Part shown: piece after piece, positions 1,847 through 10,652 of the stretch | How positions within the stretch are numbered: position 1 is the first letter of the stretch | How the letters are laid out: each line of letters starts with the position of its first letter | Assembly (NCBI GenBank): GCA_007571305.1 | Contig: RKRR01000119.1 | Coordinates: forward strand, 21,954 to 85,953 | Reading direction: 5' to 3' | Length of the DNA stretch: 64,000 bases | From: Candidatus Poribacteria bacterium | GTDB taxonomy: Bacteria; Poribacteria; WGA-4E; WGA-3G | The notes under the pieces: generated by a model | What the model was told of the DNA's origin: nothing | What the model saw: the letters and a program-made list of their open reading frames with translations, nothing else | Database searches by the model: none | Translations under genes and position numbers: made by a program

Positions 1847-2116
1847 GCAATTTTCCTCCAAGTTGGGTTGCAAATGGTAGAATGTTTCGGTCAGGTAATA
1901 GTATATCACAAATCCGGGTTTTACGCAAAAACTGGGAGCCTCGTATTAGGGTATTTATGGTAACTTGTAAAAACAAATAGACACTCCCCCTTCCAGTAGG
2001 CGAGGTTAGGAAACCTCGCCAGTGAACAGTGTTCAGTTAATTCTAAAATCCACTATAAATGCCTAAATTTTTGATAAGGTATTGTTTTTTTCATAAGTCA
2101 ATGATAGAATATAAAT

Positions 2117-4780
2117 ATGCAACATCTCTTTGAAAAACTACGCGAAGACACCCAAAACTGGCGCGACGAAGGGTACTCTTCCCCAGATTATCCACTCATC
2201 GGAGAAATACTACGCTACCAATTTGAAGGTGAAACAGATAATCGTGTCCATCTTAAATACCTCCGCGAACCGCAATTCCAATCGCTGGAGCTCTATTGGT
2301 ACCTGAGATTAGTACTAAAAACTCCACATATTGCTGAACTTTACAGACACTACTACGATACCGGCGATATACGCGATTTTTGCGAAGCATTCGGGATCCC
2401 GATTTCCGCTAACGAACTGATATTGATTAGGGATGTTGACACGATTATTGACTTGGTAAAAAACAACCCCGAATTCGTCAAACAGAAGCAAATTGATCCG
2501 GTTCACGAGGCTGTGACGCTTCCGTATCCGAGTTACATCTTCGCGCTTGCGATGGGCACCGGTAAGACGGTTCTTATTGGCACTATTATCGCAACCGAAT
2601 TCGCGATGGCACTTCGTTATCCCGAAGGCGAGTTTATGAAAAATGCCCTCGTCTTTGCCCCCGGCACAACCATTATTGAGAGTCTACGTGAAATCAGCGA
2701 TATTCCCTTCGATCATATCCTACCGTCCAGTCTACACAGCGATTTTCTTGCCAACCTCAAAATCACCTATGCACAGCCCGGGGCAAAAGAAATTCAAGTC
2801 CAAACCGGCAGTACTTACAACGTCATTGTCGCAAACACCGAAAAAATCGCGCTGCGGGCGAACGTAAAAAAACGGAGCAATCAGACAGAAATTGCGTTTG
2901 AGGAAAAGAAGGAACAAGCAGAATTAGTGGCAAACCTCCGCCTTCAAAAAATAACAAGTCTACCTAATTTAGGGATATTTTCAGATGAAGCACACCATAC
3001 TTACGGAAACAAAATAGACGCGGAACTTAAGCGGGTACGTGAAACGGTTAATTACATAGACGGGAAAACTAAACTCGTCGCTGTGATTAATACCACTGGC
3101 ACACCTTACGCCAAGCGGCAGATGCTCAGAGAGGTCGTTGCATGGTATAGTCTCGGTGAAGGAATCAGGGACAACATCCTTAAAAGTCTTCACAACGGCA
3201 TTGTTCAGTACCCTATCGGAACTATTCCTGACCAAGACGTGATCCGTAACGTTATCAGCGACTTTTTTGATAGCTATCGTGATGTATCATTACCCGATGG
3301 TGCGAAAGCGAAAATCGCCTTTTACTTCAGAACGCAAGAGCACTTAAACGCCTCCCTTGCGCACATTCAAAACGCGCTCACAGAAATCGGAGAAAGTACC
3401 ACACAAATACTTGTCAATACCCAAAAATCAAGTCCGCAGGAAATTAATGAGTTCAACCGACTCAACAATCCTGACAGCCAGAAACGTATCATTCTCCTTA
3501 TCGGCAAAGGGACAGAGGGGTGGAATTGTCCCAGTCTATTCGCTTGCGCACTTATCAAGGAACAAACGGCCAGTAGTAACTTCATCTTGCAAGCCTCAAC
3601 GCGATGCCTCCGCCAAGTGAAAGGTAATACACAGACAGCAAAAATCTTTTTGGATACCAAAAACAGTGCGATTTTAGACAAAGAATTGCAGGCGAACTTT
3701 GGAACGACACTCGGCGAGCTCCGCACGCAAGACGTGGAAACGGAAGAGGTCGCGCTCCGCATTCGTAAAACCGATTTGCCGAAATTACAAATCATGCAAT
3801 TGGTGCGCCGCGTTGTTCCGCTGGAAAATACGCCTAAAGCGATTCAGTTGCATAAGCCAGCAGACGTTGAGAAGACTCCGCCTGCTTTTCGCAGCATTCT
3901 GACTCCCGATTTCACACAGCGAACTACTTCGCCGCTAACAGCGTTGGGCGCACAAGATGAGGTGGAAATTGCTAATCAGACAACAGATTGCTACACACTG
4001 ACAAGACGACTTGCAACAAACTATCATCTTTCTGTTATAGAGACCCTCAAAAACCTCAAAAACCTCTATCCAGAGGGACAGGTCCCTTATGAACACTTCG
4101 ATGCGCTATGTAGACAGGTGGAAGACCAGCAGCAAAATTACGAAGTGATTGAGGAACAAATTGCAGAGCATCTCGCGCTTATCCGTATCCACGATGACGA
4201 CGGCAACCTACTTTTTGAAAAAGATGATACCGACGGTTCCTATGTTCACAAGGTGCGTCTGCGTAAGCGTAAGGCTGACCTCCTCCTCAGTGAAGACGAC
4301 TTAGATGACAACCACGATGTGAGTTTTCATTATATGCCCTACGACTTCGATAGTGCCCCCGAACAGCACTTCTTTAAAACGATTTTAGCAACCTTGAACC
4401 AATCCGTTGCAGATGTTGAAGTATTTCTGTTTACCGGTAGTTTGGCAAATACCAAGAAAACCGATTTTCATTTTGAATACAAAGGCACTGATAACAATTA
4501 TCATCGCTATTTTCCTGATTTCGTTATCGTCAGGAACACAGGGGAGTTCTACATCGTTGAGATTAAGTCTGAAAGTGAACGCGGCGACCCTACTGTCGTT
4601 GCAAAAAAGAAAGCAGTGAAACGTCTGGCAAGATTGCAACCCGATGCTCACTTTGAATATAAAGTCATTTATACAAGGGATGCCTCTCTCCAAGAGAATT
4701 TAGACGAAATGCAAACTATCCACGAATGGATTAATAGGAACGAAACCATGCAGAACGATGGCGAAAATAATTTAGCGTGA
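2117..4780 (+). CDS. res: Type III restriction enzyme Res subunit (SF2 helicase plus C-terminal PD-(D/E)xK nuclease)
   Basis: Walker A is ALAMGTGKT and the DEAH box is FSDEAHH. TTGTPY, GTEGWNCPSLF and QASTRCLRQV match Res motifs III, V and VI. C-terminal FPDFVIV...YIVEIKSE is a PD..ExK nuclease motif. Confidence 0.85.
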   Translation: MQHLFEKLREDTQNWRDEGYSSPDYPLIGEILRYQFEGETDNRVHLKYLREPQFQSLELYWYLRLVLKTPHIAELYRHYYDTGDIRDFCEAFGIPISANELILIRDVDTIIDLVKNNPEFVKQKQIDPVHEAVTLPYPSYIFALAMGTGKTVLIGTIIATEFAMALRYPEGEFMKNALVFAPGTTIIESLREISDIPFDHILPSSLHSDFLANLKITYAQPGAKEIQVQTGSTYNVIVANTEKIALRANVKKRSNQTEIAFEEKKEQAELVANLRLQKITSLPNLGIFSDEAHHTYGNKIDAELKRVRETVNYIDGKTKLVAVINTTGTPYAKRQMLREVVAWYSLGEGIRDNILKSLHNGIVQYPIGTIPDQDVIRNVISDFFDSYRDVSLPDGAKAKIAFYFRTQEHLNASLAHIQNALTEIGESTTQILVNTQKSSPQEINEFNRLNNPDSQKRIILLIGKGTEGWNCPSLFACALIKEQTASSNFILQASTRCLRQVKGNTQTAKIFLDTKNSAILDKELQANFGTTLGELRTQDVETEEVALRIRKTDLPKLQIMQLVRRVVPLENTPKAIQLHKPADVEKTPPAFRSILTPDFTQRTTSPLTALGAQDEVEIANQTTDCYTLTRRLATNYHLSVIETLKNLKNLYPEGQVPYEHFDALCRQVEDQQQNYEVIEEQIAEHLALIRIHDDDGNLLFEKDDTDGSYVHKVRLRKRKADLLLSEDDLDDNHDVSFHYMPYDFDSAPEQHFFKTILATLNQSVADVEVFLFTGSLANTKKTDFHFEYKGTDNNYHRYFPDFVIVRNTGEFYIVEIKSESERGDPTVVAKKKAVKRLARLQPDAHFEYKVIYTRDASLQENLDEMQTIHEWINRNETMQNDGENNLA

Positions 4781-4869
4781 GTTTGGTATAAGTGGTAGTT
4801 CTCATACTGTTTGGATGAAAAAGAAAAGGTTGAAAACTTGCTAAAAATGCCTTACACTTAATCAGACTT

Positions 4870-4885
4870 GCAATCAGATGATTGC
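4870..4885. promoter_or_regulatory. candidate operator palindrome upstream of the toxin-antitoxin pair
   Basis: gcaatcaGAtgattgc has 7-bp perfect inverted arms about 50 bp upstream of the antitoxin ATG. AATCAGA occurs twice, at 4860 and 4872. Confidence 0.3.
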
Positions 4886-4936
4886 ACTGTACCACAGCAT
4901 TGGCATCACTAACCACTTTTTGTATGGAGGCCCTCA

Positions 4937-5155
4937 ATGACAAAGCGACTTGAACTAGCTTTTACAGAAGCATCAAAGCTCTCACCGAAGGAACAAGATG
5001 CCCTGGCAGATTGGTTACTTGCTGAACTTCACTCTGAGAGAAAATGGGATAGATTATTCGCAGATTCTCAAGAGTTATTATCTAAACTGGCTTCTGAAGC
5101 ACTCGCAGAATATCATAGTAGTCAAACACAGGAATTCGATCCAGACCAACTATGA
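4937..5155 (+). CDS. type II antitoxin (small acidic addiction-module component)
   Basis: 72 aa, with GGAGG 8 nt upstream. Its stop overlaps the toxin start (ATGA). Helical acidic sequence (LSPKEQDALADWLLAEL) is typical of antitoxins paired with RelE/ParE toxins. Confidence 0.65.
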   Translation: MTKRLELAFTEASKLSPKEQDALADWLLAELHSERKWDRLFADSQELLSKLASEALAEYHSSQTQEFDPDQL

Positions 5156-5421
5156 ATTCAAAAACGACAAAACGCTTCCGTCAGATGCTGGCGAAATTAC
5201 CAGGTAACATCCGACAACAAACTAAAGGGGCCTACAGACTATTCACGGAAAACCCACACCATCCAAGCCTGCAATTCAAGAAAATACACAACACTGAGGC
5301 AATTTACTCCGTTCGTATCAACATCAACTATCGAGCGGTTGGTGTTGTCAGGAACGGAGTAATCGTTTGGTTCTGGATCGGTCCACATACAGAATATGAG
5401 AAGTTGCTTGATCAACTTTGA
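5152..5421 (+). CDS. RelE/ParE-family type II toxin
   Basis: 89 aa. The pattern F...L..LP......A...L..NP.HPSL.FKKI...IYSVRIN.NYRAVG.....VIVWFWIGPH.EY matches the RelE/ParE superfamily. It overlaps the antitoxin by 4 bp. Confidence 0.75.
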   Translation: MNSKTTKRFRQMLAKLPGNIRQQTKGAYRLFTENPHHPSLQFKKIHNTEAIYSVRININYRAVGVVRNGVIVWFWIGPHTEYEKLLDQL

Positions 5422-5821
5422 GATTTAGGACTTATGAAATAATTGGGCTTGTGGGATAATATTGTATTATGGCAACTGAAAGAATAATCACAATGAATAC
5501 AGACATTGGACTTCAGCAATGCACAATCCCTTTTAAAGATTATCTTTTTAAATATCTGAGGGTGGTTCATAAATGATTTATTGATGCAAATACAATTCCT
5601 TCCTTTTCCAAATATCCTACTGCGGAGAAAATACAAAAAACAATGGAACTTTTAATCCGGAGACTGAAACACACGGAAGATGCTCCAAAACCCAAAAAAG
5701 CATCTATTCGATGCTATACATCTTGGGATAGTTTTGTGCAACAAAAATGTCTAAACTTAAGATACTTGGCCGAACAGGAAAAAAAATGGCACTCCAACCT
5801 ACAACATAGGAAGAACACACA

Positions 5822-7498
5822 ATGAAAATCAAGCCAGTTAAAGGCAGACCGATGCTGCACTGGGTTGGCAAACGCCCAATTGACATAATAAGCAATTATC
5901 CTGCCCAATTGGTGGATACATATAACGTTGAAAACCCAGAGAAAGAACCGACCTATGACAAATTTAAAGACGGTCCTAATCTCCTTTTTCACGGTGATAA
6001 CAAGGAGATTCTTTCCACGCTGCTGGTGCAAGGTTTTCGTGGCAAAATAGACCTCATCTACATTGATCCGCCTTTTGACAGCGGTGCAGATTATGTACGG
6101 AAGGTAGCACTACGCGGTGAACAGAATAACTTGGAGGCTGAAGGACATTCTGTTATTGAACAGACACAATACACAGACATTTGGGCAAACGATAACTACC
6201 TCCAATTCATGTATGCACGACTCATTTTGATGTACGAATTGCTATCAGATAAAGGTTCAATTTACCTACATTGCAACCATGAGAAGAGTCACTATTTGAA
6301 AGTCCTCATGGATGAGGTATTTGAAAAAGACTTATTTCAAAATGAAATTATTTGGTACTACAAAAACGCCTCTCGTGGAAAAAAGCGATTAGCTCATGCA
6401 CATGAGACTATTTTCTGGTACACCAAATCGCCGGACAAATATATTTTTAACCGAGATGAAATTCTGGTTCCTTTCGAAAGTAGAATGACGGAGTGGCGAT
6501 ACAATAAAGGAGGACAAGCAGGAAACGATATGCCTAAAGGTAAAACCCCTGACGACGTTATTATTCTCCCTTCTCTTAACACCATGGATGGGGAACGTTC
6601 TGACTTTCCTACCCAAAAACCTGAAACTCTGGTAGAACGCATCATCAAAGCCTCAAGCAACGAAGATTCCATTATCCTCGATTACTTTGCAGGAAGTGGT
6701 ACCACTGCCGCCGTTGCTGAAAAACTCGGCAGGCGTTGGATTGCTGCAGATATCAACAAAGGTGCAATCCAAACAACAATAAAAAGACTTCAAAAACTAC
6801 CTGACATGCAGCACGGTATTGCCCACTATCGTGTTAATAACTACGATGCCAGTACACATTTAGAACGAAGAGATATTGTGATAAAGAAATATGGCGTGCA
6901 AACGGAGAGACAAGAGGCGTTCTTTGATGGTACGCTGGATGGCACACTCGTCAAAATTATTGACTTGACGAAACCGCTCGCCCCGTTAGATATTCAAGTG
7001 ATTAAAGACGAACTTGAGAATCGTCCAGAAGAGTCACGCAACATCACGGTATTTTGTTACGGTATCAATAGAAGCATTCAAGCAGAACTCAAGGCGGAAA
7101 ACAGACGGCGCGCAGTCAACAAAATCTTTGTGCGTGACATCGGGAGCGAAGGCATCACGACTTTTGAACCTGCAGCAGCGGATGTTAATTTCGAGAGAAA
7201 AGGAAATAGTGTCAAAATTACCATCGCAGATTATATAAGTCCAACTATCTTAGCACGGATGGATATTGACCGCACAATTTTCGACGAGCAAATCGCCGAC
7301 TTCCGTTCACAGATTGATTGCGTCCTGATTGATACCGACTATACAGGTGAACATTTCAAAATAGTTGAGAGCGACGTACCGAAGAAAAAGGAAGATTTTG
7401 TTGACGGGGAATACATGGTATCGTTACCACGTCCAGATGCCCGCGTCGCCATAAAAATCATCGACATGCTTGGTGAGGAAACTGTTGTTACGGGATGA
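5822..7498 (+). CDS. mod: Type III-like DNA methyltransferase Mod (beta-class N6A/N4C)
   Basis: N-terminal LHWVGK. Motif IV is DLIYIDPPFDSGADY, followed by FPTQKPETLVERII and motif I, ILDYFAGSGTTAAVAEKLGRRWIAADI. About 230 aa follow motif I. Confidence 0.88.
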   Translation: MKIKPVKGRPMLHWVGKRPIDIISNYPAQLVDTYNVENPEKEPTYDKFKDGPNLLFHGDNKEILSTLLVQGFRGKIDLIYIDPPFDSGADYVRKVALRGEQNNLEAEGHSVIEQTQYTDIWANDNYLQFMYARLILMYELLSDKGSIYLHCNHEKSHYLKVLMDEVFEKDLFQNEIIWYYKNASRGKKRLAHAHETIFWYTKSPDKYIFNRDEILVPFESRMTEWRYNKGGQAGNDMPKGKTPDDVIILPSLNTMDGERSDFPTQKPETLVERIIKASSNEDSIILDYFAGSGTTAAVAEKLGRRWIAADINKGAIQTTIKRLQKLPDMQHGIAHYRVNNYDASTHLERRDIVIKKYGVQTERQEAFFDGTLDGTLVKIIDLTKPLAPLDIQVIKDELENRPEESRNITVFCYGINRSIQAELKAENRRRAVNKIFVRDIGSEGITTFEPAAADVNFERKGNSVKITIADYISPTILARMDIDRTIFDEQIADFRSQIDCVLIDTDYTGEHFKIVESDVPKKKEDFVDGEYMVSLPRPDARVAIKIIDMLGEETVVTG

Positions 7499-7608
7499 TG
7501 CTAAATTTGTCCTGCTAAATCAGGTTATAGGGTAGCCTTCCCGTATCTGTCCGTTTTACTAGACAATTCAATACCGACTGAGTGCAAAATAGTCGAAAGG
7601 ATTTAAAA

Positions 7609-8742
7609 ATGTCTGACGAAATGAAACCGGATCTGCCGGCAACTACCGAAGATGAAACTAATTCTACACTTGGCGTTGTCACTGATCTTATATTGGATTC
7701 AACTATTCCCGTTTCAATCAGGCGCAACATGTTTAAAGTTGCTGATCGACTATGCTCCGCTTTAATTAAAGTACCTGTTGAAGCTCTTGAGCGGAGAACC
7801 GCCGAAAAACGGGCAGAATCAGAAGCACGAATTAAAATTGGACAAGAGGTTACTGACCAAATTATCCAACAAATAAAGGTCGATCCGGAATTCCCACAGA
7901 GAGCAGGAACCTCATTTGCCAAAAAAATACTGCGGGAACAGTTCAATTGTGAAAAAATCCTGTCTATTGCTGCAAACCAACTTAAGAAAGTGAAATACAA
8001 TAGTTCGACAGATCAAAACATTGAGAGTGAAGTAGAAAAGTTGATTGACGACGATTGGTTTAACGCTTTTGAGAAAGAGGCAAATCAAAAAAGTGACAAA
8101 GACATGCAGCATCGTTTCGGTCGCGTCTTAGCTGGTGAGGTTGCAAACCCCGGGTCGTATTCAATAAGGGCTGTGAAAACCTTAGGGGAGCTAGACCTAA
8201 AGGCTGCTCGTTTGTTCGAAACATTATGTTCCTTATGTATAGTTTTAGGAGATCCAATGCAAGGACAAGTTATTGATGCCAGAGTTTCTTCTCTAGGCGG
8301 AGACGCGAATGCAAATACCCTGCGAGGATATGGCTTGGCTTTTTGTGATCTTAATATATTAAACGAGTATGGGCTCATTACCTCGGAATACCACTCCTCA
8401 CATGGATACTATGAAGTTGTACAAAATGAGAATACCCAACGTTGTTTTCCATTCTGGTATCAAGGAAATTATTGGGGTTTATGTCCTTTACCAGGGTGGA
8501 GAAAAGAAGATCGGTTTAATCTTAGATTGTCGGGAGTTGCTCTTTCTCAGGTTAGCCGCGAACTATTACGCGTAGTTGATCTGGATCCAGCGGATGAGCC
8601 CCTGAAGACCGCGAGGCAGGAATATACTACAGATCTAAAAAAATACTTTGAAGATCAGAGATTAAGAATGGCTGAAGCCCAACTCAAACTGGAATACTTT
8701 GATGGTCATCCAATTCCCTCCGCCCATTATTATGTCCGGTAA
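7609..8742 (+). CDS. hypothetical protein, DUF2806-like
   Basis: ORF 7582..8742 starts on GTG; an ATG at 7609 is preceded by AAAGGA. The DDDWFNAFEKEA..KSDKDMQHRFGRVLAGEVANPGSYSIRAVKTLGELDLKAARLFE block resembles my recollection of the DUF2806 signature. Family call made from memory only. Confidence 0.5.
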   Translation: MSDEMKPDLPATTEDETNSTLGVVTDLILDSTIPVSIRRNMFKVADRLCSALIKVPVEALERRTAEKRAESEARIKIGQEVTDQIIQQIKVDPEFPQRAGTSFAKKILREQFNCEKILSIAANQLKKVKYNSSTDQNIESEVEKLIDDDWFNAFEKEANQKSDKDMQHRFGRVLAGEVANPGSYSIRAVKTLGELDLKAARLFETLCSLCIVLGDPMQGQVIDARVSSLGGDANANTLRGYGLAFCDLNILNEYGLITSEYHSSHGYYEVVQNENTQRCFPFWYQGNYWGLCPLPGWRKEDRFNLRLSGVALSQVSRELLRVVDLDPADEPLKTARQEYTTDLKKYFEDQRLRMAEAQLKLEYFDGHPIPSAHYYVR

Positions 8743-8925
8743 TGTTGAATGATGTAATGGTCAATCGTAGGATTGTCTTTTGTAAAGTTTGCGATGTAAT
8801 ACCATTCCTATATGGATAGTTTTCATAACAGGTATTCTTCAGAAATTCCCTGATAAGAGGGATTTAGGTGGTTTCTGACAGGGATAGCACCTTATTGGGA
8901 AAGTATATTTCGCGAATGAATATAG

Positions 8926-9253
8926 TAACGTGAGTTTGATAAATATTTGTCTATTTTTTCAAGAAAGAGACCTCTTTTGGTATAATGAAGTAAAACCCTT
9001 TCATTGTTCGATACGGTGTTCCTGAAAAAGCGGATACTGATTGAAGCAGTGATCCGGAAACTCAAAACACAGACACAGGTGGAATACACCCGGCAGAGAA
9101 GTTTTGAAAACTTTCAAGTCAATGTATTCTCGGAAACCTTGATTGCATATCAGTTGTTGGAGAACAAACCCTCGCTGAAGGGCACTGAACTGCAGCAAAG
9201 CAAGGATTCACACAAACTTTCTAAAACATAAACTTTTTTCAAACTCACGTTAT
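8926..9253. mobile_element. miniature, internally deleted IS remnant bounded by 14-bp perfect terminal inverted repeats
   Basis: TAACGTGAGTTTGA at 8926-8939 is the exact reverse complement of TCAAACTCACGTTA at 9240-9253. The element carries only a transposase C-terminal fragment. Confidence 0.6.
9004..9231 (+). pseudogene. DDE transposase C-terminal fragment (IS982/IS4-like)
   Basis: 75-aa ORF. KRILIEAVIRKLKTQTQVEYTRQRSFENFQVNVFSETLIAYQL resembles the conserved IE..F..LK....EH.RHRS..NF..N....L.AY transposase tail. No catalytic core is present. Confidence 0.55.
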
Positions 9254-9398
9254 AATTACATTAGGTTGTGATTAATATAGACAGACGTAGCATTCAATAA
9301 GTATGCCCATCCTGACTTCAACTTTAGCATAGGATAATCACCATACCAAACGGTCGATAAAGTCCACCAACATGTGAAAACATAAAGGACAAAAACGC

Positions 9399-10652
9399 AT
9401 GGCACTTCCAAAAATGACACGGATTCAGCAGACGTTTGAAGCACCCGTTCTCACCAACCTCCCCGCGGCGATTCACACGGAATTAGAACGGATTAACGCC
9501 TCTGCTATTATCAAACCCGGCGAGACTGTCGCCGTTACCGCGGGAAGCCGCGGCGTTGCGAATGTCGCGACTGCGGTCAAGGCGACTGTTGATTATCTCA
9601 AGACACTCGGTGCGCACCCCTTTGTCGTTCCAGCAATGGGAAGCCACGGGGGTGCAACGCCTGAAGGACAACGGAGTGTGCTGGAACATTACGGTATCAC
9701 CGAAGAGACTGTCGGCGCCCCCGTGAAAGCGACAATGGAGGTCGTAGAACTCGGAAAGACGGCAGACGGCTTGCCTGTTTTTCTGGATAGGTATGCCGCT
9801 GAGGCGGATCACGTTGTACCCCTCAATCGCATTAAAGCACACACAGATTTCAACGGCTCCATCGAGAGCGGCGTGATGAAGATGATGGTCATCGGGCTTG
9901 GCAAACAAGAGGGTGCGAACTTTTACCATCGAGCATTCTTCCAGTACGGTTTTGAACACGTCATCACGGCTGTCGGTGGTTTCATCCTTGACAGCGGAAA
10001 AATCGCTTTCGGCATCGGGCTCATTGAGAACGCACACGAAGATACTGCGAAAGCTGTCGCCATGCCCGCTGCACAACTCCTCCAAACCGAACGTGAACTC
10101 CTCGTCGAAGCGAAATCGCTGATGGGACGACTGCCCTTTGATGAACTCGATCTGCTCATCGTGGATTGGACAGGTAAAAATATCAGCGGCACAGGTATGG
10201 ACACGAATGTCATCGGCAGGATGATGCAAAATTTTGAGCCGGAACCCGCAAAACCTGCAATCCTCCGTATATTTGTCCGAAATCTCACCGAAGAAAGCGA
10301 CGGGAACGCCACTGGCATCGGACTCGCCGATTTCACGACGACCCGTCTCGTGGACCAGATTGATAGACACTCTACCTATATGAACGGTATCACCGCGCTT
10401 GGACCACAGAAGTCGAAAATCCCGTTCTACTATGACACCGATCGGGAAGCGATTGAAGTGGCACTCGATACCATCGGTCTCACCGAGCCGGAGGATGCGC
10501 GCGTTATCCGTATTGAGAGCACACTGAGATTAACGGAACTCGACATCTCTGAGGTGTTGCTTGAAGATGCGAAACTGCATTCGAGGTTAGAGGTCATCAG
10601 CGAAACGAAACCGTTTGCATTTGACGCAGCGGGCAACCTGTTACCGTTTTAG
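9399..10652 (+). CDS. LarA-like (DUF2088, lactate racemase N-terminal domain) protein
   Basis: 417 aa. PAMGSHGGATPEGQ parallels the LarA GTHR loop, and the overall layout is LarA-like. AAGGA sits upstream of the start. Confidence 0.5.
   Translation: MALPKMTRIQQTFEAPVLTNLPAAIHTELERINASAIIKPGETVAVTAGSRGVANVATAVKATVDYLKTLGAHPFVVPAMGSHGGATPEGQRSVLEHYGITEETVGAPVKATMEVVELGKTADGLPVFLDRYAAEADHVVPLNRIKAHTDFNGSIESGVMKMMVIGLGKQEGANFYHRAFFQYGFEHVITAVGGFILDSGKIAFGIGLIENAHEDTAKAVAMPAAQLLQTERELLVEAKSLMGRLPFDELDLLIVDWTGKNISGTGMDTNVIGRMMQNFEPEPAKPAILRIFVRNLTEESDGNATGIGLADFTTTRLVDQIDRHSTYMNGITALGPQKSKIPFYYDTDREAIEVALDTIGLTEPEDARVIRIESTLRLTELDISEVLLEDAKLHSRLEVISETKPFAFDAAGNLLPF

Follow-up and report, generated by a model that had tools for sequence, protein, structure and literature searches.

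The stretch of DNA analysed here, called the window, spans 64,000 nucleotides of a Candidatus Poribacteria contig (RKRR01000119.1, positions 21,954 to 85,953 of the forward strand), and the subject of this report is an open reading frame (ORF) in it that encodes a protein of the DUF2806 family. The ORF closes a run of genes on one strand that code for a Res-like helicase-nuclease, a putative antitoxin, a ParE-like toxin and the DNA methyltransferase Mod, and it is followed by the remnant of an insertion sequence (IS) and by a conserved LarA-like gene. An earlier note, made from the nucleotide letters without database searches, had placed a 377-residue ORF 110 bp after mod, on the same strand and with the same low guanine-plus-cytosine (GC) content, and had seen in it an uncharacterised candidate defence or abortive-infection (Abi) gene at the end of a restriction-modification (R-M) and toxin-antitoxin (TA) island. 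The ORF, coordinate and GC data agreed with that description of the gene. The frame starts with the ATG at 7609 and terminates with a stop codon at 8740-8742, while its longest version opens at the GTG at 7582, nine possible codons upstream of this ATG. GC content was 0.38-0.42 across the gene and 0.38-0.44 across mod, and 0.53-0.55 in the flank from 9501. The terminator scan found no terminator-like site on the plus strand between the end of mod at 7498 and the ORF; apart from this missing site, the promoter and terminator scans remained at background level and were uninformative on co-transcription. The ratio of nonsynonymous to synonymous substitution rates (dN/dS) of the gene was 0.23-0.34, which denotes purifying selection, and Res and Mod were tighter still, at 0.11-0.15. 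Together with hundreds of full-length homologues, this ratio ruled out the idea of a pseudogene or a chance ORF.

The profile search that the earlier note had proposed, performed here as a Pfam scan, returned PF10987 (DUF2806) with E=3.3e-22 and 79.8 bits, well above the gathering score of 24.5, and DUF2806 was the sole recognisable domain of the protein. The alignment joined amino acids 97-264 to profile positions 1-163 of 221, and the end of the profile was reached by the homologues P0007 and P0033. The block DDDWFNAFEKEA...FGRVLAGEVANPGSYS...LFE, which had been recognised as DUF2806-like by eye, corresponds to amino acids 147-204 and is indeed the best conserved part of the family. L174, E177 and A200 do not vary among 73 diverse members, in which W150, F154, F170, R172, A175, G176, P181, S185 and F203 reach a conservation of at least 90%. 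The resulting signature, W...F...F-x-R-x-LAGE...PGS(Y/F)S...A-x-LF, has all its residues present at positions 150-203 of the window protein, aligned by hhalign to the plasmid-borne short forms of the family. Profile-profile comparison of the window clade with these short forms, which are 280-300 amino acids long, gave a probability of 99.8% (E=4e-29) over window residues 94-363; long and short forms thus have the entire core in common, the C-terminal alpha/beta domain included, and the long form of the window differs from the short ones by about 95 additional N-terminal residues. Core homology therefore extends to short forms encoded by plasmids and phages; the annotated plasmid example is the 283-residue protein of the IncX4 conjugative plasmid, where the gene adjoins partition and replication genes. 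This protein belongs to the same Pfam family and was matched to the window protein with 24.5% identity over amino acids 97-327 by tblastn and with 99.8% probability by hhalign. Against the NCBIfam model TIGR03899 the window protein scored 64.5 bits, below the curated cut-off of 155.65, and it had no match in PADLOC (2023, PADLOC-DB 2.0) or PHROGs. As the earlier note had stated, no enzymatic motif was recognised, in Pfam, NCBIfam, PADLOC or PHROGs. The window ORF is a true, intact member of the DUF2806 family.

The structural check that had been suggested was also carried out, with a divided outcome: a structure model was obtained, and a match in the PDB was not. The AF2 model of the full protein reached a pLDDT of 78.8 and a pTM of 0.73, and its helical core bears the signature residues W150, F154, F170, R172, L174-E177, P181, S185, A200 and F203. 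As modelled, the protein would begin with a flexible N-terminus and a basic helical hairpin, followed by the helical core of DUF2806 and a C-terminal alpha/beta domain, and it appears soluble and non-enzymatic; the regions are delimited in the table below. The lysis phenotype of a family member, described below, gave rise to the idea of a membrane protein, which was ruled out, since no transmembrane segment was predicted and the highest 19-residue Kyte-Doolittle mean was 1.37. No PDB chain was retrieved by sequence search with the window protein or with the family profile, and with the full model Foldseek reached no E better than about 1 in the PDB, all hits being helical noise. To avoid masking by the long helices, residues 143-377 were remodelled alone (pLDDT 84, pTM 0.80), and this model too had no Foldseek match (best E=2.6); nor did Foldseek recover the similarity to PDB 3H35 that has been mentioned for Abi-alpha, a comparison protein discussed below. 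One match was obtained in BFVD, to an unnamed 229-residue phage protein that is itself evidently of the DUF2806 family and hence uninformative.

Table 1. Features of the island and of the DUF2806 gene, in window coordinates
Feature	Position	Strand	Basis
Res-like helicase-nuclease, 887 aa (amino acids), first gene of the island	2117..4780	+	weak ResIII and C-terminal TnsA-like endonuclease domain
72-aa ORF, putative antitoxin by position only; 4-nt overlap with the toxin gene	4937..5155	+	position
ParE-like toxin, 89 aa, between res and mod	5152..5421	+	PF24732, E=5.6e-9
60-aa ORF, probable remnant: 3' end of a 234-aa L056 gene	5643..5825	+	blastn
Mod, N6/N4 DNA methyltransferase, 558 aa, with swapped central target-recognition region	5822..7498	+	PF01555, E=1.9e-52; PADLOC MTase_III, 1.3e-68
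Shine-Dalgarno-like AAAGGA, 7 nt 5' of ATG 7609	7596..7601	+	sequence reading
DUF2806-family protein, 377 aa	7609..8742	+	DUF2806 match, dN/dS, AF2 model
N-terminal region, aa 1-54, conserved in sequence, low model confidence	7609..7770	+	pLDDT below 50; conserved L21, P34, P36, N40, K43, L48
Two long helices, aa 56-89 and 94-132, basic (isoelectric point 9.2)	7774..8004	+	AF2 model, composition
Family signature block, aa 147-204 (DDDW-N-FE ... F-x-R-x-LAGE ... PGSYS ... A-x-LF)	8047..8220	+	conservation in 73 members; core of the Pfam match
C-terminal mixed alpha/beta domain, aa 211-376, family core, partly covered by the Pfam model	8239..8736	+	pLDDT mostly above 85; hhalign
IS remnant: 30-nt imperfect terminal inverted repeats around a 75-aa DDE_Tnp_1_3-like ORF (9004-9231)	8926..9252	.	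weak Pfam match; repeats
LarA-like nickel-pincer isomerase, conserved core gene, right border of the hotspot	9399..10652	+	NF052515, E=1e-158

The earlier note knew of no named defence system built on DUF2806, a statement that is now outdated. In an assay of 88 cassettes of the chromosomal integron of Vibrio cholerae N16961, Darracq et al. named 16 anti-phage systems, one of which, Belisama, is a single-gene, DUF2806-domain system that acts by abortive infection (bioRxiv 10.1101/2024.07.02.601686). At high multiplicity of infection, Belisama caused strong, unrecoverable lysis of the culture without phage amplification; it was toxic when over-expressed, such that a lower induction level was needed, and its homologues were found in 70 genera of Pseudomonadota (bioRxiv 10.1101/2024.07.02.601686). 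Belisama is now called by DefenseFinder, for example on a Desulfovibrio piger prophage. The family has been reported as remotely related to Abi-alpha, which was characterised in 2019, so that it can no longer be termed uncharacterised. Abi-alpha is EF2833 of prophage 6 of Enterococcus faecalis V583, a protein of 272 amino acids without known domains, which brings about premature lysis of infected cells; its own family (Abi_alpha, PF14337, formerly DUF4393) was reported to be similar to PF10987, and it rides on mobile elements, sometimes resistance islands (PMC6356687). Like the window gene, Belisama is a single PF10987 gene that is accessory, moves horizontally and lacks a recognisable catalytic domain; the two differ in setting, Belisama being a gammaproteobacterial integron cassette and the window gene the last cistron of a Poribacteria R-M operon. 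A search seeded with the IncX4 short form listed no named Vibrio protein among its top matches. Abi-alpha, in turn, comes from Gram-positive prophages, and its kinship with the window protein is at the superfamily level only: all 73 diverse relatives match DUF2806, and seven of them show weak, sub-threshold matches to Abi_alpha as well (best E=1.3e-3), while several short forms are annotated with both PF10987 and PF14337.

Relatives of the window protein are numerous and widely spread. A word-indexed search returned 377 of them, the best of which, besides one identical copy, was 61% identical, and an exhaustive profile search yielded 7,348 representatives of 50%-identity clusters at E<=1e-3, 467 of them at E<=1e-30. 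In a scan of species-representative genomes, 73 loci were found, mostly in Poribacteria, the remainder including cyanobacteria, Acidobacteriota, Binatia, Verrucomicrobiales, Thiothrix, Geobacter and alphaproteobacteria. Mobile elements also carry the gene. About 300 conjugative enterobacterial plasmids hold relatives, IncX4 being the annotated example, and a relative on a cyanobacterial (Acaryochloris) plasmid adjoins HicAB, transposases and a NACHT protein. Phage relatives occur in Paracoccus phage Pkon1, within the accessory region, and in Sinorhizobium phage phi3LM21.

For the comparison of neighbourhoods, ORFs were called in all loci and clustered, the cluster representatives were annotated, and association is given as counts. 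In 20 species-level loci (19 of Poribacteria and one of Binatia), a type I R-M operon carries the DUF2806 gene between hsdM and hsdS, all on one strand, and in 12 of the 20 the distance to hsdS is 60 bp or less. Embedding in R-M operons was also seen repeatedly with other backbones. Locus L056 has the order of the window, namely Res (88% identical, of equal length), the ParE-like toxin with the same Pfam match, Mod (70% identical, with a divergent central block) and then DUF2806; L060 has the same backbone as the window, and in L050 Mod is followed by DUF2806. In L010 (263-11119) the gene stands after Mod, a Dsr1-like gene and a bona fide type III restriction endonuclease gene (E=2e-138), and in L071 it stands after Mod and the same two gene clusters, c59 and c60 (a ResIII helicase). 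Other defence genes are found in the same company: the type I operons (such as L022 12790-13989) also hold Gp49/HTH_37, DUF433/PIN and BrnT TA genes, as well as an AAA_21 ATPase that matches PADLOC HEC-01A and AbiL, and in L061 (5397-10603) ZorA/ZorB-like genes are located just 5' of DUF2806. As a separate observation, the R-M operons of Poribacteria are landing pads for diverse defence modules, comprising Dsr1-like, ZorA/ZorB-like and HEC-01A/AbiL-like genes and TA pairs. No conserved partner gene was found across the DUF2806 family.

Comparison of alleles and backbones revealed cassette-like behaviour of the gene. The window and L056 are homologous at the nucleotide level from 2117 to 7485, with 85% identity, and this homology ends at the 3' end of mod; the DUF2806 allele that occupies the same slot in L056 differs in its N-terminus and shares only 35% identity with the window protein over the C-terminal 235 amino acids. 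The reverse holds for the type I-embedded locus L002, whose match to the window is confined to 7596-8704, i.e., the DUF2806 ORF alone, and in a neighbour-joining tree the window protein falls inside the type I-embedded clade. Alleles have thus been exchanged in a fixed position, and the gene has switched between type I and type III-like backbones. Among 15 syntenic type I loci, the median pairwise identity was 54% for DUF2806, 79% for HsdM and 69% for HsdR. The divergence of DUF2806 was uncorrelated with that of HsdM or HsdR (r=0.15-0.22) and weakly correlated with that of HsdS (r=0.32), while HsdM and HsdR were correlated with each other at r=0.92. Quick, uncoupled evolution in a kept slot fits a defence gene that is swapped by recombination.

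The right border of the island offered a further view of this variability. The cluster of proteins at least 90% identical to the LarA-like protein has Candidatus Poribacteria proteins as its named members, which places the window in the genome of a sponge symbiont. In the genomes with a LarA of at least 90% identity (L085-L089) the upstream region is occupied by another defence island that lacks DUF2806 and encodes HsdM, a 477-residue unknown protein, DUF5615, HsdS, HsdR, a YgjP-like protein, an unknown protein and a SocA/Panacea protein. Since a different island lies upstream of the same LarA gene, the site (about 2000-9400 in the window) is a defence hotspot of variable content, in which the DUF2806 gene is accessory. 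The 477-residue protein (L085 2034-3467) has no Pfam match and occupies the hsdM-hsdS slot that is used by DUF2806 elsewhere in Poribacteria, which makes it another candidate for an embedded defence gene.

We regard it as probable that the window gene is a single-gene abortive-infection module of the Belisama/Abi-alpha type, expressed alongside the R-M genes to form a second defence line. An anti-phage function is predicted for it from the homology to Belisama and from the context, and an Abi or lysis phenotype, which has been observed for Belisama and Abi-alpha alone, would by analogy be expected of it. In the mechanism that we propose, the gene closes a res-ParE/antitoxin-mod island that was gained by horizontal transfer and sits in a chromosomal defence hotspot of Poribacteria; its product would be made together with the R-M proteins, and it would be harmless in uninfected cells. 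A phage that escapes restriction would lead the DUF2806 protein to trigger early death or lysis of the infected cell, such that no phage progeny is released, and the gene would thus be a second line of defence that hitch-hikes in the R-M operon. The suggestion of a defence or Abi gene made in the earlier note has accordingly gained weight from a validated Abi protein of the same family, from the R-M and other defence neighbours and from the hotspot, and the word uncharacterised has to be dropped.

Several results weigh against this assignment and must be set beside it. The likeness to Belisama comes through the shared DUF2806 domain and not through a direct sequence comparison; the gammaproteobacterial short forms are only about 22-25% identical to the window protein; Abi_alpha (PF14337) did not match it even at E<=10; and no cell-killing fold or motif was apparent in the Foldseek and profile searches. 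The neighbourhoods are also less uniform than the Poribacteria loci would suggest. The 20 type I loci are for the most part orthologous positions within a single phylum and hence not independent. In about 35 loci of other phyla the two neighbours on each side were mostly housekeeping or unannotated genes, the exceptions being three integrases, two ThsB-TIR proteins and one type II R-M system, and the enterobacterial chromosomal copies reside in small ORFan islets without known defence genes. The neighbourhood check advocated in the earlier note thus succeeded in part: defence association is strong and recurrent in Poribacteria, where synteny by descent accounts for much of it, but it does not hold throughout, and about half of the loci sampled from the wider family have no known defence neighbour.

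The constancy of the slot raises the alternative that the protein is a guard or regulator coupled to R-M, held inactive by the methyltransferase or restriction complex and firing upon phage anti-restriction, or else modulating the activity or specificity of the R-M system. The precedent is the prrA-prrB-prrC-prrD locus of E. coli, in which PrrC, an ABC-ATPase-like anticodon nuclease, is physically associated with its type I R-M system. Like PrrC and RloC, the DUF2806 relatives would be Abi-type genes lodged in R-M operons as back-up defence, and their location corresponds, the window gene lying right after mod and 20 relatives between hsdM and hsdS; unlike PrrC, the DUF2806 protein showed neither an ATPase nor a nuclease domain in Pfam, NCBIfam or PADLOC and had no structural match, and its gene changes backbones. 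A guard would account for the hsdM-hsdS slot kept in 20 species, usually within 60 bp of hsdS, for the position directly after mod or res in five more loci (L050, L056, L060, L010 and L071), for the retention of the post-mod slot in L056 in spite of 35% identity, and for the N-terminal 54 residues, which are conserved yet poorly modelled, as is often the case with docking segments. However, the nearest relatives serve type I operons with a gamma-class HsdM and the window protein follows a beta-class Mod, which makes a specific physical partner unlikely; the divergence of DUF2806 is uncoupled from HsdM and HsdR and weakly tied to HsdS; Belisama and Abi-alpha act as single genes without R-M; and TA pairs and other defence genes fill the same operon gaps, suggesting a landing pad rather than a complex. 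The N-terminal region also occurs in cyanobacterial and acidobacterial relatives that have no R-M nearby (their matches start at residues 10-24), and an R-M-specific N-terminal docking domain is therefore unsupported. Taken together, we judge an R-M-coupled guard to be unlikely.

A toxin-antitoxin-like, addiction or sensor module was considered next, i.e., an element that is toxic or controls a toxin and that stabilises the island, or a sensor that governs a separate toxin, in place of an Abi effector acting on its own. Belisama is toxic upon over-expression, the operon slots of DUF2806 are otherwise filled by TA pairs, and the island of the window itself contains a ParE-like TA pair. In addition, at least five loci have the gene of the ribonuclease toxin BrnT abutting a DUF2806 ORF that bears a BrnA/CopG-like N-terminus. 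In these loci (L008 9529-11125, L022, L026, L029 and L052), BrnT (about 9529-9855) abuts or overlaps the DUF2806 ORF, which starts at 9764-9839 and is long (430-459 amino acids), with some 50 extra residues at the N-terminus (PDATPEEIGEFWDTHSLADYWDET); this extension resembles the N-terminal part of CopG/BrnA antitoxins and was detected in eight of the 73 members (best E=1.1e-4). Judging from these sequences, DUF2806 seems to replace the DNA-binding domain of the antitoxin in the BrnT loci, which hints at a role as toxin sensor or controller. The window protein, nevertheless, has no BrnA-like extension and neither BrnT nor any other small partner adjacent to it, no BrnT gene was found at the window locus, and most family members are solitary genes. 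A TA-like role is, moreover, compatible with Abi defence and would in part be a sub-case of it; as a separate explanation of the window gene, we hold it to be distinctly unlikely. An accessory function of mobile elements outside phage defence (plasmid or prophage maintenance, exclusion or regulation), passively carried by the island, is likewise distinctly unlikely: although the gene is found in about 300 conjugative plasmids, with partition-type and replication genes beside it in the IncX4 example, in temperate phages, and in many chromosomal ORFan islets that hold transposases or resolvases but nothing recognised as a defence gene, phage blocking was directly shown for a DUF2806 protein (Belisama), the Poribacteria copies lie inside R-M operons and not on recognisable plasmids or prophages, and plasmids and phage accessory regions are also typical sites of defence genes.

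The remaining features of the island concern its R-M genes and its borders. With respect to type III R-M, Mod matches MTase_III, Res has only the weak ResIII and TnsA-like matches, the C-terminal TnsA-like nuclease match being sub-threshold, and res precedes mod; PADLOC REase_III had no match to the Res of the window. This R-M system, with an atypical Res encoded before mod, may be an undescribed type III-like variant, and Res and Mod are each the singleton of their own 90%-identity cluster in a collection of 15 billion proteins. In its central part (6238-6601, about residues 140-260), mod shares no nucleotide homology with its counterparts in L056 and L050, to which it is 83-88% identical elsewhere; this part is also about 60 amino acids shorter. 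At the sequence level, this looks like a swap of the target-recognition domain, which would imply another methylation specificity. The 72-residue ORF at 4937-5155 had no match in Pfam, PADLOC or NCBIfam. Between the ParE-like gene and mod, L056 contains about 2.6 kb with four to five small genes (4651-7294) that are missing in the window (5558-5822), and blastn aligned window 5577-5788 with L056 7294-7507. The IS remnant that the earlier note had reported next to the gene was recovered here as the DDE_Tnp_1_3-like ORF and inverted repeats at 8926-8955 and 9223-9252, which together constitute an element of about 327 bp resembling a miniature inverted-repeat transposable element. A third copy of its end sequence (GCGTGAGTTTGG) is located at 4773-4793, just past the stop codon of res.

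The finding does not add a new kind of system, since DUF2806 already includes a validated anti-phage protein, Belisama; the novelty lies in the context, with a systematic placement of the gene inside R-M operons of an uncultured phylum, the swapping of alleles in a fixed slot, and, in some relatives, the BrnA-like fusions beside BrnT. A broader and, in our estimate, improbable generalisation is that DUF2806 may be a portable phage-sensing and Abi module with varied partners, an R-M guard in Poribacteria and a BrnT-controlling BrnA-like fusion elsewhere, which would provide a general back-up trigger for failed first-line immunity. If the assignment as an Abi module is right, the Belisama/DUF2806 defence family would reach from proteobacterial integrons into uncultured sponge symbionts, where it would be systematically lodged in R-M operons with its alleles exchanged like cassettes. 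These operons would then offer a natural test bed for layered immunity, with restriction first and suicide second. The 7,348 clusters of the family, for which no solved structural relative was found, make it a good target for structural and mechanistic study. In annotation, a 'DUF2806 domain-containing protein' could be flagged as a probable defence gene, including the IncX4 copy, which is the target disrupted by the mcr-1-pap2 cassette (PMC8221240).

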